IMG/VR virus record: IMGVR_UViG_3300022927_001391
Coordinates: 1-64,000 of that record
Strand: one strand, 5' to 3'
From: a virus
Length of the DNA: 64,000 nucleotides
Part shown: piece by piece, positions 34,002-54,550 of the stretch
How positions within the stretch are numbered: the first letter of the stretch is position 1
How the letters are laid out: each line of letters starts with the position of its first letter
Translations under genes and position numbers: made by a program
Notes under the pieces: model-generated
Database searches by the model: none
What the model saw: the letters and a program-made list of their open reading frames with translations, nothing else
Told to the model about the DNA's origin: nothing

Positions 34002-34627
34002 TGCACTTTTCCGTAAAACTTCTGCCCATACTGATAAGTCCACAACTAGACTGCATTTGGATTAATATTCCAAAGAACGCTAGCAGTTTTATGCAGAAGA
34101 TACTACAGGATAATGGCTGGCGTGAGCCAGATTCTAGTATACGGCTTGATCTATTAAACAGCAGTATTCGTAAACTTTGTATTTTTAGAAATCCTGTTGA
34201 AAGATGGATCAGCGGTTTTGCAGAATGTTTTATGGATATGCCGGAGATCATTGATTTATTAGACACCCCAGCATTTATAAAAGTCGTAGAGCGTTCTCCA
34301 ATATTTGATAATCATACAGAATTGCAGAGTACATTTGTAATTAATTCCACAAATCTAGAATATATTCATTTAAGATCTGTAGTCGACGCCAATAGTTTTT
34401 TTACTAACGTGGAACAGTGGATAAAAGAGAACGGTGGTCAGGCTGACTGTGGTAGATGGCAGGATCCAATAAACCCCAGTAGCAATGACGAAATAAAGCA
34501 TATGATTAACAAGAAATTGAAAAAAATAGTCGAACAGAATACACTTCTAAGAGCATCGTTAGATAATTTTTTCTCTCCTGATGTAGAATTGATTAATAAA
34601 GCAAGAAGAATATCCTATGGAAACTAA
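34001..34627 (+). CDS. Sulfotransferase family 2-like protein
   Basis: IPKNASS (5'-PSB) and FRNPVERWISG (3'-PB). Confidence 0.7.
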   Translation: MHFSVKLLPILISPQLDCIWINIPKNASSFMQKILQDNGWREPDSSIRLDLLNSSIRKLCIFRNPVERWISGFAECFMDMPEIIDLLDTPAFIKVVERSPIFDNHTELQSTFVINSTNLEYIHLRSVVDANSFFTNVEQWIKENGGQADCGRWQDPINPSSNDEIKHMINKKLKKIVEQNTLLRASLDNFFSPDVELINKARRISYGN

Positions 34628-36074
34628 CCTAACTGCACAACAATCAGACTATGCTGTGTTCCTCCCAGCACTCAGTAGTTTTTATTCTACGTTTGTGGGT
34701 AGACAGCGATATGAAAACTATGTTGATCCAGCACGTATTCCCAGTCACTTTACTAACGGTTTAGAGAGTGGTAACTGGTTGAGTAATGATGGTCTGTTTA
34801 ATTACAAGTGGAGTCTGTATAGTTCAGGACATGTGGACTTAGACACTACCAAGCATCTCCCTAAAGAAGCAATGATACGTGAACGTGATCGTAGCACAAG
34901 TTTTATTGTTGGTGACTCAGGTGGATATCAGATTGGTAAGGGTGTATGGGAAGCAGACTGGAAGGATCCCAACTGTCCTAAAGCTCACGCCAAACGTGAC
35001 GCTGTTCTAAAGTGGATGGATGCCTATATGGATTACGGCATGACACTTGATGTTCCAAGTTGGTTACAGCGTAGTAGTCAGGAAGCCAGAGATCGTACCG
35101 GCATTCATAGCTATGAAGATGCGTGTTCAGCAACTGAGATCAATAATGAATATTGGATACGTAATCGCAAGGGGGAATGTCGTTTCCTAAACACACTTCA
35201 GGGTGAGAATCATACAGAGGCAGATGACTGGTACAACCGTATGAAGAAATACTGTGATCCAAAACAGTATGAGAATCACTTTAATGGTTGGGCAATGGGT
35301 GGACAAAACGTAAGTGATGTGCACCTTATTCTAAAGCGTATAGTTACTCTAATGCGTGATGGCTTACTTGAAAAGGGACTACACGATTGGATGCACGTAC
35401 TAGGTACTAGTAAACTAGAATGGGCGTGTCTACTAACAGATGTTCAACGTGCGGTACGCAAACATTACAACGAGAACTTTACTGTCAGCTTTGATTGTGC
35501 CAGTCCTTTCCTTGCAGTAGCAAATGGTCAAGTATACTATCAGCTTACAATGGAAGATCGCAAGCGTTGGAGTTATCGTATGACGAAATGCTTTGACGAT
35601 AAGAACTTGAGCAAGGATACTACACCGTTTGGACAGGCATTTGTGCGCGAAGGCTGCGCAGAGTCATTCCATGAAACAGTTGTAAGCAAGGGACTTACAG
35701 CAGCAGACATTTGTGCATATAGTCCTGGTGACCTAAATAAAATAGGCAAGGAAGGACGCACAAGCTGGGATAGTTTTACATACTTCCTACTAATGGCGCA
35801 CAGTGTAGCCCTTCATATTGAAGCGTGTCAGGAAAGCAATAGACGTTACGATAAGGGCATTATTCCCAGTATGTTGGTGCAAGAAGACTTTGATCGTGTA
35901 CTAATGCGTGACATAATTAATGAAATAATTGGTTGCGCGGATTCAGATAAGGCGTTACAATTAGTAGACGAGTACAGCAAATTATGGATGGAAGCAGTGG
36001 GTACTCGAGGTTATACCGGTAAACGTGCTATAAATTCTAATACAAAATTTTATGATCTTTTCCAAGAGGTTTAG
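34617..36074 (+). CDS. dpdA: TGT-superfamily deazaguanine transglycosylase (DpdA-like)
   Basis: GDSGGYQ, MTLDVP, LQG, HVLGT, SFDCAS; no TGT C-terminal Zn CxCxxC; same genome as folE/queD/queE. Confidence 0.75.
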   Translation: METNLTAQQSDYAVFLPALSSFYSTFVGRQRYENYVDPARIPSHFTNGLESGNWLSNDGLFNYKWSLYSSGHVDLDTTKHLPKEAMIRERDRSTSFIVGDSGGYQIGKGVWEADWKDPNCPKAHAKRDAVLKWMDAYMDYGMTLDVPSWLQRSSQEARDRTGIHSYEDACSATEINNEYWIRNRKGECRFLNTLQGENHTEADDWYNRMKKYCDPKQYENHFNGWAMGGQNVSDVHLILKRIVTLMRDGLLEKGLHDWMHVLGTSKLEWACLLTDVQRAVRKHYNENFTVSFDCASPFLAVANGQVYYQLTMEDRKRWSYRMTKCFDDKNLSKDTTPFGQAFVREGCAESFHETVVSKGLTAADICAYSPGDLNKIGKEGRTSWDSFTYFLLMAHSVALHIEACQESNRRYDKGIIPSMLVQEDFDRVLMRDIINEIIGCADSDKALQLVDEYSKLWMEAVGTRGYTGKRAINSNTKFYDLFQEV

Positions 36075-36943: not shown

Positions 36944-37094
36944 AAAACAGTACACAGAATGGGCGTATTCTCAAATGAAAAAGTATGGTATTCCAATGCC
37001 CGAAACATATTCAGCTGAGGAAATTAAAAAGTATTGCCCGGATATCCCGTCTAAGTTTATTAATAATCATGTAAGGGAAAGAGACAATGGCTGA
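36936..37094 (+). CDS. Small hypothetical protein (52 aa, absent from ORF track)
   Basis: GTG start bridging adjacent genes: MNKKQYTEWAYSQMKKYG... Confidence 0.5.
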   Translation: MNKKQYTEWAYSQMKKYGIPMPETYSAEEIKKYCPDIPSKFINNHVRERDNG

Positions 37095-37542
37095 AACAAG
37101 AGAGAGTCATGACGAGTTTATCCTACGTAGTATGCGTGAAGAAGGTCTAAAGGATCGAGTACGCAAAGCCTCACGTATGGTATGGGTTAAGTTTGAAAAG
37201 GAAGGTATGCATCGCTATCCAGCGGCTGCTGATGATCCTAAACTAGCAACAGGCGATGAATATGATGTAAGTTTCCTTGCACATCCTCATCGTCACATCT
37301 TCAAGTTCCGTGTATGGATTGAAGTATTCCATGATGATCGTGACATTGAGTTTATTCAGTTTAAACGTTGGATGAATAAACTTTACGAAGGTGAACTTGA
37401 CGTAGACTTTAAGTCATGTGAAATGCTTTCAGATGACCTTTATTTAACCATCCAGGATCGCTATCCAGGTCGTGATATTTGGATTGACGTATCCGAAGAC
37501 GGCGAAAATGGCGCACTAACACAATATTCAAAGGACGTATAA
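37087..37542 (+). CDS. QueD-paralog T-fold protein (DpdL-like, putative CDG decarboxylase)
   Basis: LAHPHRHIF (LxxxHRHxF), SCE, VSEDGE; lacks QueD catalytic Cys. Confidence 0.65.
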   Translation: MAETRESHDEFILRSMREEGLKDRVRKASRMVWVKFEKEGMHRYPAAADDPKLATGDEYDVSFLAHPHRHIFKFRVWIEVFHDDRDIEFIQFKRWMNKLYEGELDVDFKSCEMLSDDLYLTIQDRYPGRDIWIDVSEDGENGALTQYSKDV

Positions 37543-43178: not shown

Positions 43179-43859
43179 ATGAGAAAGACTTCCGATATTA
43201 TTCGTAATCGCATTCGCGAGACAAACACACGTTTTCATTCTAATGATAACATTAGTGAGTTCATTGAAGAAGGTGAACTGACACTACTTCAACAAGAAGT
43301 TGAAGATAGATTCCAAGAAGTTCTCGATGCACTAATAATTGATACAGAGAACGATCACAATACACAAGAGACAGCCAAGCGTGTTGCCAAGATGTTTATT
43401 AATGAAACATTTGGCGGCCGTTACGCACCAATGCCACGGGTTACGGCATTTCCTAATATGGGTTACAAGAGCATGTATACCAGCGGCCCTATTAGTATCC
43501 GTAGTACCTGTGCTCACCACTTCCAAAACATCGTGGGCAACTGCTGGGTCGGAATTATCCCAGAAGATGAAGTAATTGGTCTTAGTAAGTTCAATCGCAT
43601 CATTCACCATATCGCTGAACGCCCACAGATTCAGGAAGAAATGACTACACAGATTGCAGAAGCATTAAAAGAATATGCAAAGACAGAGCATATCGCTGTA
43701 GTAGTTAAAGCTGAACATCATTGTATGACACATCGTGGTGTTCGCGAACATGAGAGCGATATGACTACCGCAGTGATGTGTGGTGGATTTCTAAATGATC
43801 CAAGTGTAAAGCAGGAGTTTTACAACATCTGTTTGAGCATGAAGGGTCATAGTAACTAA
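43179..43859 (+). CDS. folE: GTP cyclohydrolase I
   Basis: TAKRVAKM, CAHH, GLSKFNR, QIQE, HHCMTHRG. Confidence 0.95.
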   Translation: MRKTSDIIRNRIRETNTRFHSNDNISEFIEEGELTLLQQEVEDRFQEVLDALIIDTENDHNTQETAKRVAKMFINETFGGRYAPMPRVTAFPNMGYKSMYTSGPISIRSTCAHHFQNIVGNCWVGIIPEDEVIGLSKFNRIIHHIAERPQIQEEMTTQIAEALKEYAKTEHIAVVVKAEHHCMTHRGVREHESDMTTAVMCGGFLNDPSVKQEFYNICLSMKGHSN

Positions 43860-43873
43860 TCAGGGAGAAACAT

Positions 43874-44497
43874 ATGTTGAAGTTACTAGAAGGTGTAGAT
43901 CGCAAGTTGGTTAATCAGCTTGTTATCATGCACGTAATCGTAATTGCACTTTCAAATTACTTGGTGCAGTTCAAGTTTAACCTGTTCCCAGGTGCTAACT
44001 TGCCATTCTTTGGTGAGTTTCCACTTGCAGTTGCAGCATTTACATTTCCAATTGTAGTTGTTGCCACTGACTTGACCGTCCGTATGGTGGGCAAGGAAGC
44101 AGGCAGGGCAGTTGTTGCCCTAGCAGTCATCCCAGCAATCATTGTAAGTATTTTGGTTGTTTGGGGCGGCGGTGCACCAGTTGAGAAGGCACTACGTATT
44201 GGTGCAGCAAGTGGTGTTGCATATGGCGTTGGTACAATGCTAGACGTTTATGTATTCCAGCATATTCGTGAGAAGTTCACAGAGATGTGGTGGGCTGCTC
44301 CAGCATTTTCAACAGTCTGTGCAAACGTACTAGACACTTATGCGTTCTTCTATACAGCATTTTATCCAGCACCTTGGGTACATGCTGTTGCGTTCAACCA
44401 AACAATTACAAAGATCGTTGTAGGGTTGATTGTGTTCCTACCAGCATATGGTTTCCTACTAGGCCATCTGCGTAAGAAACTAGGGCGTACTCTATAA
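43874..44497 (+). CDS. yhhQ: Queuosine-precursor (preQ0/preQ1) transporter, YhhQ/VUT family
   Basis: SNYLVQF, AFTFP..ATDLTVR..G..A, DVYVF, WW.AP..ST....DT..F. Confidence 0.85.
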   Translation: MLKLLEGVDRKLVNQLVIMHVIVIALSNYLVQFKFNLFPGANLPFFGEFPLAVAAFTFPIVVVATDLTVRMVGKEAGRAVVALAVIPAIIVSILVVWGGGAPVEKALRIGAASGVAYGVGTMLDVYVFQHIREKFTEMWWAAPAFSTVCANVLDTYAFFYTAFYPAPWVHAVAFNQTITKIVVGLIVFLPAYGFLLGHLRKKLGRTL

Positions 44498-45281: not shown

Positions 45282-48200
45282 ATGACTTATAAGACACTAG
45301 CAAGCGCATTGCTCGCCACTACAATGCTGACAGCGTGTCAGGGTGGCGGAAGCGCAGTTAACACAGTAAAGCGTGAACTTAGTCCTACAGCGAATATCAA
45401 TTTTGCTGCTATCTCAGGTGAAATTTCTGCTCTAGAGGCAGCAGTAATGGAAGCACAGGGCGCATCAAGCCTTAGTGCAATCCTTAATCCTACACAAGCA
45501 GACAAACATATGGCAGGAGACATTGTCAGCAAGATTGACAATGTTATAGCTAGTTGGGATAGCCATAAGGCAGAAATGAATGCCAAACTCTTGGCAGTAA
45601 AACTAGCTGATCCTGACTTTCAGAAAGCTGAAGCTGTAGTAAACATCCTCAAAAATCAGGTGCGTCCACTTGTTGTTAACGTAACTGAAGGCAAGGCTTA
45701 CGATACTACCAAGTTTGTCTTTATGGAAAAGAAAGAATCACTGGATAAGGTTATTGAAGATACTAAAAAGGATATCTTTAATAATGTTGTACCAACTCTT
45801 ATTAGCTCAAGCACAAGCGCAGTAAAGGTATCTGAAACTACAGCTACAAGTTCGGCAGAGCGTATTAGTGAAACCGTTGTTACAGACGGTGAGCAGACAG
45901 TGCGTGGCGGCACTGGAATTAGTGACCTAACTCGTACTGCTAGCTGGACACGCACTACAACTAAGAAGATGGTATATGATCGTAGCTGGAGTGTTACATT
46001 ACAGAACGTAACAACCTCTGTATTCAGCGATGGTACAACTAAGACTGAAAATGGTGCAGAACGAGAAGTTCCTTATAAGGTAACTCTTGATGCATCACCG
46101 CAGGTAAGTACTGAATCGCTATCTAAAACTATTGCTTACAGTGTTAAAGAAAATAACGATCCTGCAATTACGGTTACACGCGGTTCAGCGTCAGTCGAGA
46201 ATGTATACGAAGATCGTGTAGAGAAGGTTACACAGAGTGATGGTAGCATTCTACACAATACGATTCGTAAGACAACTACAACGACTACCACGCCAGTTAC
46301 TACTACTAAAACTTATCCTAAGATCAGCGTCTATACATATGAGGATGGACACTCGTTCACTCATGATGCTACGGATGAAGTTATTAGTAGTGTGGAAAAC
46401 GAAGTAGTAGTAACTACTAGTGAGTCCACTATTAACTCAACTACTGAACATGTGGTTACCAAGGAAACAACAACAAACGAAATCATTACTGAAGTAGTAG
46501 AGAGCGAGCCGGTATTTGATACTGTTTATGAGGATAAAACTACAACTGAAACAGTTGATAGCAAAATCATTACAACAGTTACTCGTTACTATACCACTAC
46601 AGCCACAGTAACAACTACTACTACCACAAAAACTACTCCAGTCACCAAGCAGATTTGGACTGATGGTACTGAGAAGATTATTCGTGGTGACACTGTTACT
46701 GATGTAAAGACTGCTAGTACTGTTGCCAAGGATACCTGGACCAAGGTAATGAGCACCACAACCACAGATGCGCCGGCTGATACTACGCCTATTGCTGACG
46801 ATCACCCGGATATGGGAACTCGCACAGCAGGTTATAATACTGATCCAACAAGTTATCGTACATCAGAATTTACAGGCACTAAAGGCGTAAACTTTCTGAG
46901 TGCTGTTAAAGCAGATGTTGCTTACTCACGTGGTTGGACAGGTAAAGGCAGTCTAATTACCATTGCTGATACTGGCTGGGACAGAGATCATACAGATCTT
47001 TCTAGTGCGGTGAAGCATGAGTATAATACACTAACTGGCGGCACTAACACTTTTATGGATGACAACGTTGGTCACGGTAGTCATGTGTTGGGCATCGCGG
47101 CTGGGCGTAAGAACGGGTCAGGCATCCACGGTGTTGCATTCGATGCAGACGTAGCTGTAGTTAAGGTGACTGACAGCACTGTTTATAGCTTCCAGCGAGC
47201 TAGAGCTGGCGCAGCATGGGCCAGAGATTTGGGTAGTATTGCTTTCAGTGCCAGTGCAAACTGGAATGAAGACAGTGCGTTCAGAAGCAGTATCGTAAAT
47301 ATCGGTTCTGGAATGAATTACAGTAATCACTGGTACTACGGTGAGAATGGATACAATGGTGCTGTAGACGAAGCCAAGTTGTGGGCGACTGCACTAGGTA
47401 GCGAACAGATCCTTGTGAACAGTGCTGGTAACTTTGCTAAAGACTATGTATCAGGCAGTGCACAGATGGCCCATGCTACTGATGCAAATGGAAACCTTAT
47501 TATGGGCGGACGCATGCTGATTGTTGGTAGCTATGATGTTACTAACAATAAAATCTCTAGTTTCAGCAACAAGGCTGGTACTGTTTGTGCCACCTGGGAC
47601 TTTACAAATAATCTCTGTAAAGATGCTGCAAGGGCTAGCGACTTCTATATCCTTGCTCCAGGCGAACGTATTGAAAGTGCTTACAAGGATGGCACAACTG
47701 TAACAATGAGTGGTACAAGTATGGCTGCTCCTGTGGTTACAGGATCACTTGCTATCCTACACCAGATGTGGCCACATATGAAAGGTGAAAACCTCGTTAA
47801 ACTTGTTCTGCAGACTACTAACAAGGACCTGCCAGGTTACACTGTGGAAACACATGGACAAGGCATGTTGGACTTGGACAAGGCTACACAGCCTGTAGGT
47901 GCAACAGGTATTCCAACAAGCGGGCGTACGAGTGGTGCTATTGCTAACCTTGAAACACTAAGTGGTGGCGCTGCTGTCGGAAGTATTAGTAGCGATGCAT
48001 TTGCGGCACTAAGTAATGTTACGGTGCTTGATAGCTTTGAGCGTGATTTTACAATCAATCTAAACAACACTCAAGCTATTGATACTCGTCCTGGATCGTC
48101 AACAGAAGCACTAAGTTTTGGTGCAAACTATGACGGTTATTGGAATCTTGCTAATGCCGGCGAAGGCACTAGTGACTTGTTTGGTATTAGGACATCATTC

Positions 48201-48830
48201 AAGTTTGACCCAGATGCTAAAGCCAATGGCGACTGGGGCATGCGTACAGAGTATGATGTGCATAGTAGCGAAGAAACTACTATTACTGCCGCACTTGGAA
48301 TGATTAAGGAGACAGGTAAGTTCCTTAACAACGTTCAGGAAGGCTTTATGGGAGTTGGTGAGTCACACACCACAAACTATGCAGGCTTGCGTCTCAATCA
48401 CAAGTTTGATGAGAACTGGTTTGGGTTTGGTAACTTCCAGTTGGGCATGACAGACGTTGAGTCATCCAAGGAGTTTAGTCTAGTAACTGGGTACAGCACC
48501 CTAGTAAGTAACAGTTGGGGTGTCGGTGCAGGTTACAAGTTTACTAACGGGTGGACTGTTGGCGCTAACTTTAGTCAGCCAATGACAGTTACAAGCGGTA
48601 AGATGAACTACAAGGTTCCAGTAGGACGTACACTTGACGGACAGGTATTATTTAATGAAGGAAGTGCTGATGCAAGTACGAAAAATATTGAATATGATAC
48701 CGGTTTGTTTGTAAAATATAATGTAAACAATGTTGCACTTGCTGGCTATGCAGAGCATCGTAGCAATGTTGCAGGTGTCTCAGGTAACAATGAAGTTAAC
48801 CTAGGCATGAAAGTGAACTTGAAGTTCTAA
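45282..48830 (+). CDS. Lipoprotein subtilase (S8) with Thr-rich stalk and C-terminal beta-barrel (autotransporter-like)
   Basis: Lipobox LTAC; triad IADTG/HGSHV/GTSMAAP; amphipathic strands ending KVNLKF. Confidence 0.85.
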   Translation: MTYKTLASALLATTMLTACQGGGSAVNTVKRELSPTANINFAAISGEISALEAAVMEAQGASSLSAILNPTQADKHMAGDIVSKIDNVIASWDSHKAEMNAKLLAVKLADPDFQKAEAVVNILKNQVRPLVVNVTEGKAYDTTKFVFMEKKESLDKVIEDTKKDIFNNVVPTLISSSTSAVKVSETTATSSAERISETVVTDGEQTVRGGTGISDLTRTASWTRTTTKKMVYDRSWSVTLQNVTTSVFSDGTTKTENGAEREVPYKVTLDASPQVSTESLSKTIAYSVKENNDPAITVTRGSASVENVYEDRVEKVTQSDGSILHNTIRKTTTTTTTPVTTTKTYPKISVYTYEDGHSFTHDATDEVISSVENEVVVTTSESTINSTTEHVVTKETTTNEIITEVVESEPVFDTVYEDKTTTETVDSKIITTVTRYYTTTATVTTTTTTKTTPVTKQIWTDGTEKIIRGDTVTDVKTASTVAKDTWTKVMSTTTTDAPADTTPIADDHPDMGTRTAGYNTDPTSYRTSEFTGTKGVNFLSAVKADVAYSRGWTGKGSLITIADTGWDRDHTDLSSAVKHEYNTLTGGTNTFMDDNVGHGSHVLGIAAGRKNGSGIHGVAFDADVAVVKVTDSTVYSFQRARAGAAWARDLGSIAFSASANWNEDSAFRSSIVNIGSGMNYSNHWYYGENGYNGAVDEAKLWATALGSEQILVNSAGNFAKDYVSGSAQMAHATDANGNLIMGGRMLIVGSYDVTNNKISSFSNKAGTVCATWDFTNNLCKDAARASDFYILAPGERIESAYKDGTTVTMSGTSMAAPVVTGSLAILHQMWPHMKGENLVKLVLQTTNKDLPGYTVETHGQGMLDLDKATQPVGATGIPTSGRTSGAIANLETLSGGAAVGSISSDAFAALSNVTVLDSFERDFTINLNNTQAIDTRPGSSTEALSFGANYDGYWNLANAGEGTSDLFGIRTSFKFDPDAKANGDWGMRTEYDVHSSEETTITAALGMIKETGKFLNNVQEGFMGVGESHTTNYAGLRLNHKFDENWFGFGNFQLGMTDVESSKEFSLVTGYSTLVSNSWGVGAGYKFTNGWTVGANFSQPMTVTSGKMNYKVPVGRTLDGQVLFNEGSADASTKNIEYDTGLFVKYNVNNVALAGYAEHRSNVAGVSGNNEVNLGMKVNLKF

Positions 48831-50225: not shown

Positions 50226-50587
50226 TGATTGAACTCTTAATAGCACTGCTAGTTAAGCACTGGCTCAGCGACTTCTGTTTACAAACTCCGTGGATGATCC
50301 AGGCAAAAAGTAAACCATTTGGTCTAGGTGGACTGATCCATGCAGCTATACACGGTGTCTTTACATTTGTTATTTGTTATTATTTTATTGGTTGGCCTTT
50401 TGCTCTATTTGTTGGATTAGCTGATTTCGCCGTACACTACACTATTGATTATTGTAAAGAACTAGTATCGCGTGTTATGAAACTGACACCAGCACATCAG
50501 CAGTATTGGATATTGTTTGGTTTTGATCAACTATTACATATGTTAACATATGTTGCTATTTGGAGTTATGCACGTGGCATTATTTGA
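50225..50587 (+). CDS. DUF3307-like membrane protein
   Basis: H..SDF.LQ, H...H, H..ID, DQLLH. Confidence 0.7.
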   Translation: MIELLIALLVKHWLSDFCLQTPWMIQAKSKPFGLGGLIHAAIHGVFTFVICYYFIGWPFALFVGLADFAVHYTIDYCKELVSRVMKLTPAHQQYWILFGFDQLLHMLTYVAIWSYARGII

Positions 50588-51149
50588 AACACACAAAGAC
50601 TGGATCTCAGAGGATGAACATGGCATGTTACAAGCATTGGTGTTGTATGCTCCACGCTGGCGTTTTGGTCAGGTAAGCGACAATACAATCCAACCAAACT
50701 ATCCCATGTGGTTCCAAAACTTTTGGGATATTAGAACATTTGAGTTCAAACCAGATCAAGAGATAGTGACCAATCTGTTACGTTCACTAAAAGATAGATT
50801 TTTAGAGTTATGCCCGGGCAATTATAAACTTGTTAGGTTTATGGCCAGTAGTAATACGTTTGGCATTGATGGTGATATCCATACAGACTGGCCACATCCT
50901 GATGTAAGTATTACAGGTGTACTTTATACAGACAAGGTATGGGAACAGAACTGGGGCGGGGAAACGGCCTTTTATAAGGATGGTGTCGTAGAAGCTAGCG
51001 AATATGAACCCAGAAAGCTTATTACATTTGATAGTAGTATTGCCCATGTAGGCAAAGGGCCGCAGCGACGTTGTAAGGAAATGAGAACAATTATAGCGTT
51101 TCAAGCAGTTAGCGAAGATGCTCTAAATGCTAAAATGAGAAAGAATTAA
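50574..51149 (+). CDS. 2OG-Fe(II) oxygenase (prolyl-hydroxylase-like)
   Basis: HTD, WGGET, FDSSIAH, R. Confidence 0.8.
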   Translation: MALFETHKDWISEDEHGMLQALVLYAPRWRFGQVSDNTIQPNYPMWFQNFWDIRTFEFKPDQEIVTNLLRSLKDRFLELCPGNYKLVRFMASSNTFGIDGDIHTDWPHPDVSITGVLYTDKVWEQNWGGETAFYKDGVVEASEYEPRKLITFDSSIAHVGKGPQRRCKEMRTIIAFQAVSEDALNAKMRKN

Positions 51150-51970
51150 TGATCATAACTGGCGATGGTGGATTAGATAACTGGTATAATGTCACTGTAA
51201 ATACGTCATTGAACACATTTGAGGTTAATTTTAATCACAAGTCTCCGGCTCGACAACTGAATTTTTTTGAAGCTGCTGATTACACTGCAAGAACAATAGC
51301 TGAAAAATACAAAGATATCTTCCTAGGACTTAGTGGAGGCATGGATAGTCAATTTGTTGCTGAAACTTTGTATAAAAATAATATTAACTTTACACCATTA
51401 ATAGGAATAAACCCTACTAATAATGATCATGAATTTGCTATAGATTGGTGTAATGCGCGGAATATAAAATCTATCATTCTTGACTTAGAATTTTATTCAC
51501 AAGATATTTTAAAAATTTATACGACCTTTTTAAAAAAAGTTCCGTTTGTTAATATAGGAAATTGCATAGATCTTTTTTTAAGTAGTATTGCAAAAAAACA
51601 TTCTGGTCATTTAATAGTCGGTGGTCCTACACTTCCTTTAACACCTTATCACCCAAAGCAAGCTAGTAAAGAACCCATTTATTCTGTAGAGATAAGTGAA
51701 TTTGCTCTTGAGTTGACCAATCAACTAATTGGTGGATTCTTCTTCTTTACTCCCGAAATTCTACTATCACAGGCAATCAATCTAGATATTACAAAGACGG
51801 ATGATTACTCTCGAGCTGCTTTATATAATTTTCCTGTCAGACATAAGACACTAGAATATAGATTATTTCCAGATTCTATTCATCTTAAACTAGTACATAT
51901 AACTAAAAATAGAAAAATCAATAACCAAGATTGGTCAAAAACTAATCTCATTAACTTACTTCAGAATTAA
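51149..51970 (+). CDS. PP-loop (adenine-nucleotide alpha-hydrolase-like) protein
   Basis: LGLSGGMDS; very AT-rich. Confidence 0.55.
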   Translation: MIITGDGGLDNWYNVTVNTSLNTFEVNFNHKSPARQLNFFEAADYTARTIAEKYKDIFLGLSGGMDSQFVAETLYKNNINFTPLIGINPTNNDHEFAIDWCNARNIKSIILDLEFYSQDILKIYTTFLKKVPFVNIGNCIDLFLSSIAKKHSGHLIVGGPTLPLTPYHPKQASKEPIYSVEISEFALELTNQLIGGFFFFTPEILLSQAINLDITKTDDYSRAALYNFPVRHKTLEYRLFPDSIHLKLVHITKNRKINNQDWSKTNLINLLQN

Positions 51971-51971
51971 A

Positions 51972-52000
51972 TTGACTCTCAATCATAAATATCTTACAAT
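51972..52000 (+). promoter_or_regulatory. Sigma70-type promoter TTGACT-N17-TACAAT
   Basis: Places +1 about 5 nt before the riboswitch candidate. Confidence 0.7.
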
Positions 52001-52011
52001 GTAATTACATT

Positions 52012-52069
52012 AGAGGACTAAGGTGTTCGACCCTCTTTAAATATTCCGCACACTCCATAACCAAGGAGT
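52012..52069 (+). ncRNA. Candidate preQ1-I-like riboswitch with anti-SD hairpin
   Basis: P1 AGAGG/CCUCU, loop ending AC, A/U-rich linker, possible loop-tail pairing GGUGU/ACACU, ACUCC/GGAGU hairpin over the RBS. Confidence 0.55.
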
Positions 52070-52075
52070 ATAAAC

Positions 52076-52549
52076 ATGGCAAAATATATTAGTACAAAAA
52101 CATACAGGCATTTAGGTCCAGTAGCATACAGACAGTGGAGAGCAGATTCACACTGCAATCTTATCCACGGATACGCATTAAGTTTCCATTTTGAATTTGA
52201 AACTGATGACCTAGATGCTCGTAACTGGGTAGTAGACTTTGGTGGATTACGTCCACTAAAGGATAGCTTAGAAGATTGGTTTGATCACACTCTGCTAGTA
52301 GCACAGGATGATCCAGACCGCGACACGCTACTAGAACTAGGCAAGAAAGGCCTAGCAAAGATTACAGAAGTTGAAAAGACTGGATGTGAAGGTCTGTCAG
52401 ACTTTTTGTATGAATACGTAAACACAATATTTTTACCTAGTTGGGAACCTGGCACTAGGGTATGGTGCTGTAAGGTTGAGGTAAGAGAAACTGACTCAAA
52501 TATGGCTATGCGAGTTGGTCACAGAGAAGATGGAGAATTCGATGTTTAA
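52076..52549 (+). CDS. queD: 6-carboxy-5,6,7,8-tetrahydropterin synthase
   Basis: HCNLIHGY, VVDFG, FDH, GCE, VRET. Confidence 0.9.
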   Translation: MAKYISTKTYRHLGPVAYRQWRADSHCNLIHGYALSFHFEFETDDLDARNWVVDFGGLRPLKDSLEDWFDHTLLVAQDDPDRDTLLELGKKGLAKITEVEKTGCEGLSDFLYEYVNTIFLPSWEPGTRVWCCKVEVRETDSNMAMRVGHREDGEFDV

Positions 52550-52730
52550 ATGCATTATGAAATGGCTAGGAGTTGGAGACACACCTGCTGTTATTACAGA
52601 AGCTGAGCTTAACAAGATGACAAAGAAGCAAGTTGATGACTGGGCAGCAGATCATGGTATCAACCTCGATCGTCGTCTTACAAAGGCTAAGATGATTGAT
52701 GAACTAAAAAAACACGTAACTGTAGACTAA
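52542..52730 (+). CDS. Small HeH/SAP/Rho-N-like protein
   Basis: LNKMTKKQV..WA..HGI.L..RLTKAKMI. Confidence 0.55.
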   Translation: MFKCIMKWLGVGDTPAVITEAELNKMTKKQVDDWAADHGINLDRRLTKAKMIDELKKHVTVD

Positions 52731-52739
52731 GAGGCGTCA

Positions 52740-53603
52740 ATGAAAGTAAGATATACTGAAGCGTTTTATTCAGTTCAAGGAGAAGGTCGCTGGACAGGTG
52801 TGCCCAGTGTATTCCTTCGTATGTATGGTTGTAACTTTACTTGTCCTAAGTTTGGTATTGCTAGGAACAGTAACGAAACAGCAGAGCCTCAGATCCAAAA
52901 GATTGTAGATGAGATTGATAACTATGATACACTTGAGGATCTCCCACTTGTGACTGTAGGGTGCGATAGCTATGCTGCTTGGCACCCTGCATTCAAACGT
53001 TTTCAACATGATGTAGACATTGATCAGCTGGTTGATGATCTACTTGCACTTACACCAACAGGTGCATGGTCATTGGATAATGGTCAGGATATCCATTTGG
53101 TAATCACAGGCGGTGAGCCTCTATTAGGTTGGCAACGAGCATATATACAGTTGCTAGAACATCCACGCATGAAGGACTTGAAGAATGTCACGTTCGAAAC
53201 TAATACTACACAATCTCTGTCAGAGGATTTCAAAACGTACCTCACAGATAATCAACAGGTACACATTACATTCTCTTGCTCCCCTAAACTATCGGTTAGT
53301 GGACATACTTGGGTTGATGCTATCAAGCCTGATGTTGCTGTTAAGTACGCTAGTGTTCCTAACAGCCACTTGTATCTTAAGTTCGTTGTTTCTGATGATG
53401 TTGACGTGGCAGAAGTTGATAGAGCTGTTGCAGAATATAGATCTGCGGGACTTGAAGCGCCGGTTTACCTCATGCCTGTTGGCGGTACGACAGACAGTTA
53501 CTTCAAAAACGGTCGTCAAGTCGCAGAGCTCGCCCTCGAAAAAGGCTACAGATATAGCCCACGCCTCCACGTCGACGTCTTCGGTAACGCCTGGGGAACC
53601 TAA
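52740..53603 (+). CDS. queE: 7-carboxy-7-deazaguanine synthase (radical SAM)
   Basis: FYSVQGEG, FLRMYGCNFTC...CDS, ITGGEP, ETN, SPK, RLH. Confidence 0.92.
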   Translation: MKVRYTEAFYSVQGEGRWTGVPSVFLRMYGCNFTCPKFGIARNSNETAEPQIQKIVDEIDNYDTLEDLPLVTVGCDSYAAWHPAFKRFQHDVDIDQLVDDLLALTPTGAWSLDNGQDIHLVITGGEPLLGWQRAYIQLLEHPRMKDLKNVTFETNTTQSLSEDFKTYLTDNQQVHITFSCSPKLSVSGHTWVDAIKPDVAVKYASVPNSHLYLKFVVSDDVDVAEVDRAVAEYRSAGLEAPVYLMPVGGTTDSYFKNGRQVAELALEKGYRYSPRLHVDVFGNAWGT

Positions 53604-53636
53604 CTTAGAAAATAAGTTACGTAAAGCTGGTGCAAT

Positions 53637-54194
53637 ATGAGAACAGTTTGGGTAAGACACGGACAAAGCGAATATAATGCTAAAAATTTAGCAACGGGTT
53701 GGCACGATCCTGATCTTACCCAACTTGGGGTAGAACAGGCATTTGAAACAGCTAGAATTTTAGCTCAAAGATACACAATGATCGCTAGTATACATACTAG
53801 CGATCTTCGTAGAGCAGTACAGACAGCTAGTATAATTTTACAAAGCTCGCCATGGTTTGTTGAGACAGAAATAGATAGTAGATTGCGTGAACGTGACTAT
53901 GGTGATTGGAGCGGTAAAAACAAGGATGAAAACCGTTTAAGTGTAGGAGATGAAAGATTTTTATCTATACGCCGAGGCTGGGACATTGCTCCCCCTAACG
54001 GTGAGAGTTTGAAAGATACTGCTAGTAGAGTAGCAAATTATTTGGACAATATAGAACAAAGTAATCTTCCGATTATTTTTGTTTGTCACGGAAATACTAT
54101 AAGAGCAGCAAGTGTGATTTTTGGAAAAAATACACCGGAATCTGTTGTAGATTGGGAAATAGAGACTGGAGGTTTCATAGAATGGGAATACTAG
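53637..54194 (+). CDS. Histidine phosphatase / dPGM-like protein
   Basis: RHGQS, SDLRRA..T, LRERDYG, PPNGES, CHGN. Confidence 0.85.
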   Translation: MRTVWVRHGQSEYNAKNLATGWHDPDLTQLGVEQAFETARILAQRYTMIASIHTSDLRRAVQTASIILQSSPWFVETEIDSRLRERDYGDWSGKNKDENRLSVGDERFLSIRRGWDIAPPNGESLKDTASRVANYLDNIEQSNLPIIFVCHGNTIRAASVIFGKNTPESVVDWEIETGGFIEWEY

Positions 54195-54550
54195 ACGACG
54201 CAAAAAGTGCTATGGGTTTGGGTAAAGCCAAACGTGTTGAGGAACCTAAGCCACGCGCACCTAAAAAATCAGAAAAGGAAATTGCTACAGAAAAGGGTGA
54301 GCCCTGGGTTAGTGTCCTTAGTGTAGAAGTTGATCAGGAAAATCCTGGCAATGGTGCTTTTGAATTAGACTGGAACCAACCTTTTATTAAATTGCTTTGG
54401 AAAAAAGGTTACCGTGACGAAAATGAAAACGATATGGTAGATCGCTGGTTTCAGGATGTCTGCAGGCACGTGGTTATGGAAAGCTATGAAAAAGATGAAG
54501 CTATGGTAACTCGTAACGACTTAGGTGATGGCAGAGTAGAGTATAAATGA
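54182..54550 (+). CDS. Hypothetical protein
   Basis: ATG 54182 after GGAGG. Confidence 0.6.
   Translation: MGILDDAKSAMGLGKAKRVEEPKPRAPKKSEKEIATEKGEPWVSVLSVEVDQENPGNGAFELDWNQPFIKLLWKKGYRDENENDMVDRWFQDVCRHVVMESYEKDEAMVTRNDLGDGRVEYK

Follow-up and report, generated by a model that had tools for sequence, protein, structure and literature searches.

A phage-specific pseudoknot with a preQ1-I-like layout in queD leaders: a candidate translational ON riboswitch

Introduction

The queD-like gene of an uncultured jumbo phage is preceded by a short leader that can be drawn as a small pseudoknot. The question raised by this locus is whether the leader is a riboswitch, how it relates to known classes and in which direction it would act. 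To our knowledge, phage-encoded riboswitches are rare, and we know of none that controls DNA hypermodification. The window, i.e., the whole stretch of 64,000 nucleotides analysed here, comprises positions 1 to 64,000 of a 105,168-base IMG/VR virus record (IMGVR_UViG_3300022927_001391; estimated completeness 29%). A sequence-only reading of the window had proposed a variant of the preQ1-I riboswitch in which the loop of the first stem (P1) pairs with the tail in one of two registers. The 5-bp register GGUGU/ACACU would exclude the hairpin that buries the Shine-Dalgarno sequence (SD), giving an ON switch, while the register GUG/CAC(52049-51) would be compatible with that hairpin, giving an OFF switch.

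Results

The leader and its transcript

The sequence of 51972-52078 agrees with that reading throughout: the promoter, the AGAGG/CCUCU stem and the GGUGU/ACACU and ACUCC/GGAGU pairings all lie where it had placed them (Table 1). The promoter is the top sigma-70-like site within 50500-54500, and its position puts the transcript start approximately 5-10 nt 5' of P1. A -35/-10 pair ending 5-16 nt 5' of P1 was found in 70 of 208 other instances of the motif. The stem encloses a 15-nt loop with AC at its end. A terminator of the upstream gene was considered for this stem, and was ruled out by the 15-nt loop, the lack of a terminator-like call and the position after a promoter.

The proposed queD-queE pair downstream was borne out by profile matches. 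The queD-like product matched PF01242 (PTPS/QueD family, 2.6e-14) and phrog_2389 (8.7e-41), and the queE-like product matched phrog_2076. A terminator-like site was looked for on the + strand between queD and queE and none was found; the queE-like gene is probably on the same transcript as the queD-like gene. The nested minimum free energy fold of the single leader sequence was no better than chance (z = -0.07 vs shuffles), the pseudoknot being outside that model. The case thus rests on comparison with other sequences.

Table 1. Positions of the leader elements and of the pathway genes in the window
Feature	Position	Strand	Remarks
485-aa protein, TGT-fold	34617..36074	+	predicted structure only
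Second T-fold protein, LAHPHRHIF	37087..37542	+	DpdL-like
FolE gene	43179..43859	+	
YhhQ/Vut_1 transporter gene	43874..44497	+	PF02592, 3.8e-21; directly 3' of folE
Promoter TTGACT-17-TACAAT	51972..52000	+	sigma-70-like, 10/12 matches
P1 5' strand AGAGG	52012..52016	+	pairs with 52032-36
Loop 1 ACUAA	52017..52021	+	WCU first, remainder variable in length
P2 5' strand GGUGU + U52027 + C52028 + G52029	52022..52029	+	covariation
Loop 2 AC	52030..52031	+	C52031 abuts the P1 3' strand, at the position of the preQ1-I specificity base
P1 3' strand CCUCU	52032..52036	+	covariation
Loop 3 UUAAAUAUUC	52037..52046	+	10 nt, consensus N-W-A-H-A-H-A-Y-U-C
P2 3' strand C52047, G52048, C52049, ACACU 52050-54	52047..52054	+	covariation
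Anti-SD arm ACUCC	52052..52056	+	A52052, C52053 and U52054 common to P2
Shine-Dalgarno GGAGU	52065..52069	+	6 nt 5' of AUG 52076
QueD-like T-fold gene, 157 aa	52076..52549	+	candidate regulated gene; CNLIHGY replacing canonical CxxxHGH
QueE-like radical-SAM gene	52740..53603	+	phrog_2076, 9.2e-53

Collection of related leaders

Related leaders were gathered by protein and by RNA. A search with the QueD protein only yielded 80 viral loci (80-100% identity), and 47 of these carried the same leader motif, with compensating changes visible. An RNA-only pattern in which all variable positions were left free was run against IMG/VR and returned at least 239 stretches (at least 119 plus at least 120), with 214 distinct motif sequences among the matches listed. 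The bases fixed by this pattern (GG, CU, UC, CCC, the alternating A's, UC and GC) are invariant there by construction; the independent test of base invariance is limited to the 27 distinct sequences derived from the protein search, in which the pattern-fixed columns are likewise invariant. Because a MAFFT alignment (A1) misregistered the second helix (P2) in the GGCG group, the pairing statistics were computed on a gapless alignment of 53 sequences (A2) and a CM-guided alignment of 97 sequences (A3).

The motif occurs once per locus. Its covariance model found a single copy in the window, at 56.5 bits against 13.6 bits for the runner-up, and one in the entire 105-kb record. Across 100 loci, one copy per locus was found in 97 of 100 sources, and no locus had a second copy. 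When the queD region was compared with GenBank phages by blastn, three distant coding matches and no leader match were obtained; going by this search, the phage appears to have no close relative in culture.

As a cellular control, a pattern of the same kind was run against 596 Gb of bacterial and archaeal genomes. Of the 59 matches, 52 had neither P1/P2 pairing nor a downstream queD. The remaining seven had the pairing, stood before queD and were all on MAG contigs, which are probably binned phage contigs or prophages and might serve as pointers to hosts. These contigs were assigned to Haliscomenobacter (183 kb), Rickettsiales MED657, Bacteroidetes, Crocinitomicaceae, Nitrospira and Chitinophagales.

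Covariation supports a pseudoknot with an extended P2

Next, we compared the pairing of the proposed helices with that of shuffled alignments and slid registers. For the 12 proposed pairs in A2, 93.9% of the cells were paired, vs 72.4% in shuffles and only 32-55% in slid registers. The covariation score was 0.60, vs 0.185 in shuffled alignments, and none of 500 shuffles scored as high. A3 gave similar values (94.9% of cells paired; covariation score of 0.58 vs 0.166). Overall, P1 and P2 were 94-95% paired, vs 72% in shuffles and 32-60% in slid registers. Individual pairs vary in a compensatory manner: among the 97 sequences, the third pair of P1 (A52014-U52034) is C-G in 40, A-U in 36 and U-A in 21, and the second pair (G52013-C52035) is G-C in 91, C-G in 3 and U-A in 2. 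Each of the inner P2 pairs occurs as four to six pair types, and five variable pairs covary.

P2 extends beyond these pairs. The loop purine (R) that follows an invariant UC and the pyrimidine (Y) of a tail block, UCYGC, were both left free in the search pattern, and they form A-U in 160 and G-C in 54 sequences, with 0 exceptions. Since R and Y covary without exception, P2 is longer than the sequence-only reading drew it. In the window it consists of 5'-GGUGU-U-CG-3' (52022-29) against 5'-CG-C-ACACU-3' (52047-54), in which the invariant U52027 lies opposite the invariant C52049, C52028 pairs with G52048 and G52029 pairs with C52047. The general layout is 4-7 variable pairs, followed by a U.C mismatch, a C-G pair and the R-Y pair. 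The C-G pair is invariant, and so is the UCYGC block apart from its Y. This fold decides between the two registers: the 5-bp GGUGU/ACACU pairing covaries and excludes the anti-SD hairpin, giving an ON switch, while the GUG/CAC pairing of the OFF switch fails, its C52049 standing opposite U52027 and the adjacent C52047 and G52048 being paired with G52029 and C52028.

The loops are also constrained. Among the matches listed, loop 1 starts with WCU (UCU in 109, ACU in 104 and CCU in 1). Its C and U are fixed by the pattern, yet they are invariant in the protein-derived loci too. Loop 2 is UC in 102, AC in 52 and CC in 34 sequences, with longer forms in 26; its final C is present in all 214 of the matches listed and, though fixed by the pattern, is invariant in the protein-derived set as well. 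Judged by this comparison, the leader at 52012-52054 (43 nt) is a real, strongly conserved and phage-specific H-type pseudoknot. Its preQ1-I-like layout, as proposed for the single sequence, was recovered in the covariation of P1 and P2, the conserved C and the A-rich start of the tail.

Expression platforms and the direction of the switch

The sequence 3' of P2 varies by clade, and four unrelated platform designs were seen. In all four, a helix burying either the SD or the AUG draws on nucleotides of the P2 3' strand or of the adjacent tail. Platform A, that of the window, is the ACUCC/GGAGU anti-SD hairpin, whose arm has three nucleotides in common with P2. Platform B is a CCUAUG/CAUAGG helix, in which the two C's that close P2 pair alternatively with the GG of the SD. 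Platform C buries the start codon, the final 3-4 nt of the P2 3' strand and CAUC pairing with GAUG plus the second codon. In platform D, found in short leaders, CUCC of loop 3 and the tail pairs with the SD.

The 7-bp helix of platform C could be examined in 56 distinct pairs of strands. One end is U-A in 27, A-U in 9 and G.U in 5, and the other end is C-G in 40, U-A in 7 and A-U in 2. Covariation was observed at both ends, neither value being reached in any of 300 shuffles. Moreover, when the second codon switches from GCA to ACU, its match to the P2 strand is preserved. A platform-swap control gave 63% vs 49%, a weak result on related sequences.

Since P2 3' or tail nucleotides are shared with the helix that buries the ribosome-binding site, formation of the knot should switch translation on. 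In the structural model, the SD has an accessibility of 0.35 when the leader can fold freely and of 0.70 when the aptamer is engaged, and the value goes up in 168 of 209 leaders, some of the rise being built in because the model blocks the entire aptamer. The SD never lies within P2 or the aptamer, and it is separated from the P2 end by 8-18 nt (class medians). In silico, aptamer and expression platform are thus predicted to be mutually exclusive, as for riboswitches generally. On balance, we think it somewhat probable that the leader pseudoknot is a phage-specific riboswitch aptamer of preQ1-I-like form, acting as a translational ON switch.

Association with QueD-like genes

Although queD was no part of the RNA pattern, 208 of the 211 distinct instances with a downstream ORF, among the matches listed, directly precede a QueD homologue. 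Among the three exceptions are leaders in which a small ORF stands between the motif and queD (L065). The canonical QueD signature is CxxxHGH (PMC10516641), while 203 of the 211 motif-linked QueD-like proteins have CxxxHGY. By this signature, the CxxxHGY proteins are a distinct T-fold subfamily, and their chemistry may differ from that of CPH4 synthase.

Such near-exclusivity to one protein subfamily is the pattern expected of an autoregulatory site. The pseudoknot could then be a protein-binding operator, bound by a phage protein that sets queD translation, e.g., the QueD-like enzyme or a translational regulator of the T4-like or jumbo-phage kind. RNA operators and pseudoknots do serve translational autoregulation in such phages, as for gene 32 and regA of T4. 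However, a few QueD genes of the canonical CxxxHGH type have the motif in front of them as well, and it persists although QueD identity falls to approximately 39-43%. The knot is small, and its invariant bases are concentrated at the junction of the helices and within the loops, a distribution seen in small-molecule aptamers. Furthermore, a protein would need to stabilise the knot and thereby activate translation, which is rare. We therefore regard an operator as unlikely.

A ligand-free equilibrium

In the window, the two competing structures are nearly iso-energetic, with -5.2 kcal/mol for the P2 duplex and -5.5 kcal/mol for the anti-SD hairpin, which falls to -0.4 kcal/mol once its ACU is taken by P2. 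Such a balance would also suit an element that binds no ligand at all, in which a fixed or physically tuned equilibrium of knot and hairpin (by temperature, Mg2+ or co-transcriptional folding) sets the level or timing of translation. The A-rich loop 3 and the short loop 1 could then be conserved for triplex contacts that stabilise the knot, as loop triplex contacts do in frameshifting pseudoknots. Against this stand the invariant U.C mismatch, the C-G pair, the ever-present cytosine preceding the P1 3' strand and the UC in loop 3, which exceed what helix stability needs, and the four platforms rebuilt around the same aptamer, which are typical of sensors. A ligand-free element is distinctly unlikely in our view, and the candidate riboswitch remains the preferred reading.

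Comparison with known RNAs

The sequence-only reading had placed the leader near preQ1-I, and membership in that Rfam family was not upheld. The preQ1-I model (RF00522) gave no match at 52010-52057 even at E<=10 and none on 15 other motif leaders; its best match in the 105-kb record (13.6 bits) is not at the leader. The search itself works, as 1 of 14 control genomes exceeded the gathering score of 39 bits. None of all 4227 families of Rfam 15 matched at the motif, either in the window at the gathering score, in the leader at E<=10 or in the 15 other loci at E<=5. Full-text literature searches found no description of the motif.

The nearest family is nevertheless preQ1-I (types I-III, represented by the B. 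subtilis queC, T. tengcongensis and E. coli yhhQ leaders). The B. subtilis riboswitch has the same AGAGG/CCUCU stem. In both the motif and the family, a small H-type pseudoknot is built from a 5-bp P1 and a P2 that joins the P1 loop to the 3' tail, and a C preceded by U or A lies directly 5' of the P1 3' strand. Loop 3 is A-rich at its start and placed along P1 in both, the two G-C pairs on top of the phage P1 are part of the same layout, and the FolE/QueD/QueE 7-deazaguanine pathway is the setting of each. For preQ1-I, the UC/AC rule and the part played by the specificity cytosine have been described (PMC11625349).

There are also differences, and the expectation that loop 1 and the tail would be unlike those of catalogued preQ1-I aptamers proved correct. 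The phage P2 has 7-9 layers, with the U.C mismatch, C-G and R-Y extension, vs approximately 4 bp in preQ1-I. Loop 2 has 2-3 nt instead of 4-6, and loop 1 begins with WCU and varies in length where preQ1-I has UU. In preQ1-I, the A-rich loop 3 leads straight into the P2 3' strand, whereas in the phage motif the invariant UCYGC block intervenes, its Y and G pairing with bases drawn as loop 2; this block is absent from preQ1-I. The phage motif has its SD outside the aptamer and ON wiring, while the ligand-bound state of preQ1-I is OFF, with the SD occluded or a terminator formed. A table of representative preQ1 riboswitches has SD occlusion or transcription termination only (PMC11625349). Unlike preQ1-I, the motif is found almost only in uncultured phages, most of them QueC-less.

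Other classes are more distant. PreQ1-II and preQ1-III (HLout pseudoknots) serve the same pathway and are likewise pseudoknotted, but they are larger, have an embedded hairpin and bury the SD in the knot. In the adenine (add) riboswitch, the ligand-stabilised aptamer withdraws the strand that buries the SD or AUG. The phage motif shares this ON logic, whereas the add class is a three-way junction rather than a pseudoknot and has no sequence relation to it. The manA and wcaG motifs are likewise structured RNAs that regulate in cis, known mainly from marine metagenomes and T4-like phages (cyanophages), where they precede auxiliary metabolic genes (PMC2864571). They have other folds and other genes than the phage motif, and that paper, a 2010 catalogue, neither describes the phage motif nor mentions queuosine, pterin or PTPS genes.

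The second register of the sequence-only reading would make the motif a diverged but otherwise ordinary preQ1-I riboswitch, with preQ1 or preQ0 as ligand and queD turned OFF. This agrees with the topology (5-bp P1, A/U-preceded C, A-rich tail start and a queuosine-pathway gene) but is very improbable, given the silence of RF00522 at this and 15 other leaders, an SD that stays 8-18 nt (class medians) beyond P2, the clash of the GUG/CAC register with covarying pairs, and genomes mostly without QueC, in which preQ0 and preQ1 are probably not phage-made. As a conserved, covarying, structured aptamer ahead of a metabolic gene, the leader has a general trait of riboswitches. Most likely, it is a new variant of riboswitch that combines an architecture like that of preQ1-I with ON logic.

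Pathway context in the phage

By its gene content, the phage carries de novo synthesis plus a putative 7-deazapurine importer. The signature LxxxHRHxF has been proposed for the CDG decarboxylase DpdL (PMC10516641). The LAHPHRHIF of the DpdL-like protein in the window points to 7-deazaguanine (dDG) as the DNA base.

At the sequence level, the 485-aa protein matched nothing in Pfam, PHROG or PDB. Its AlphaFold model (pLDDT 82), however, had tRNA-guanine transglycosylases as all of its best 50 PDB matches (E 3e-7, TM 0.4-0.5). More than 7000 metagenome homologues exist, and the 120 listed had no Pfam domain and were annotated only as 'hypothetical protein'. Going by the predicted fold, the protein probably represents a DNA transglycosylase of the DpdA type that has diverged very far. 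In G014, the gene of the TGT-fold protein lies less than 10 kb from folE, queE and the DpdL-like gene. PDB sequence searches with three neighbouring proteins gave nothing useful.

The same set of genes recurs. Nine large motif-bearing records were compared, five of them complete (236-382 kb). All nine had FolE, QueE and the DpdL-like protein, and eight had the TGT-fold protein; the Pfam TGT model matched none. On the 105-kb record, neither the QueC model (PF06508) nor the Pfam TGT models had a match. A strong QueC match was found in only 1 of 48 records, the remaining matches being short and partial. As most of these phages are without QueC, they probably do not make preQ0 and preQ1. The switch would thus probably sit on the committed step of a QueC-less route ending in 7-deazaguanine in DNA.

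Discussion

Herein, we propose the following mechanism for the candidate ON switch. In the knot-free state, the P2 3' strand would pair with the region of the ribosome-binding site, which in the window means that the ACUCC/GGAGU hairpin buries the SD. Stabilisation of the knot at the P1/P2 junction, most likely by a small ligand, would free the SD, whereupon the queD-like gene, and probably queE too, would be translated. We infer that a small molecule tips the balance of knot and hairpin from the invariant unpaired bases around the P1/P2 junction and from a platform that was repeatedly re-invented around one aptamer.

The candidate ligands would be guanine itself or a pathway heterocycle with a guanine face (dihydroneopterin triphosphate, CDG, 7-deazaguanine or preQ0). 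ON wiring is unusual on a biosynthetic gene, and it makes end-product feedback unlikely. Feed-forward sensing would be easier to rationalise, speculative as this is, with a purine as the signal or with dihydroneopterin triphosphate, the substrate of QueD, one face of which resembles guanine; no obvious metabolic logic singles out one ligand. We put at nearly even chances the further reading that the motif is a new riboswitch class, confined to large aquatic phages, which senses a metabolite of the QueC-less 7-deazaguanine route of DNA modification (candidates include dihydroneopterin triphosphate, CDG and 7-deazaguanine) and turns translation of the committed enzyme ON.

If this last reading is true, the motif would be a first in two respects, as a riboswitch devoted to DNA hypermodification and as an activating switch of the queuosine/deazaguanine pathway. 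It appears to invert the logic of the preQ1 switches tabulated in PMC11625349, all of which are repressing. The identity of its ligand would reveal which intermediate is monitored while these phages replace guanine in their DNA, and how a preQ1-I-like scaffold is rebuilt for a new specificity. The motif is abundant, with hundreds of distinct sequences, mostly from jumbo phages (236-382 kb where records are complete). Its size of 43 nt suits structure determination, and it could supply a compact ON switch for synthetic biology. It also marks a large, uncharacterised QueC-less pathway with the HGY QueD-like, DpdL-like and TGT-fold families.

Neighbouring reading frames

An ORF of 273 aa (51149-51970, +) ends 2 bases 5' of the -35 hexamer of the queD promoter. 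It has a weak PP-loop/NAD-synthase resemblance (Pfam E 0.008; PDB 3fiu E 0.016) and, on that resemblance, could be a QueC-like ATPase; of 189 other instances of the motif, only 5 have this ORF upstream. Farther upstream, an ORF of 1182 aa (45282-48830, +) matches the phage protease family phrog_3677 (1.1e-28). Between queD and queE lies an ORF of 71 aa (52515-52730, +) with weak PHROG matches to a prohead protease inhibitor (3e-07) and to endonuclease VII (3e-05), and small ORFs resembling it were found 3' of queD in 15 related instances.
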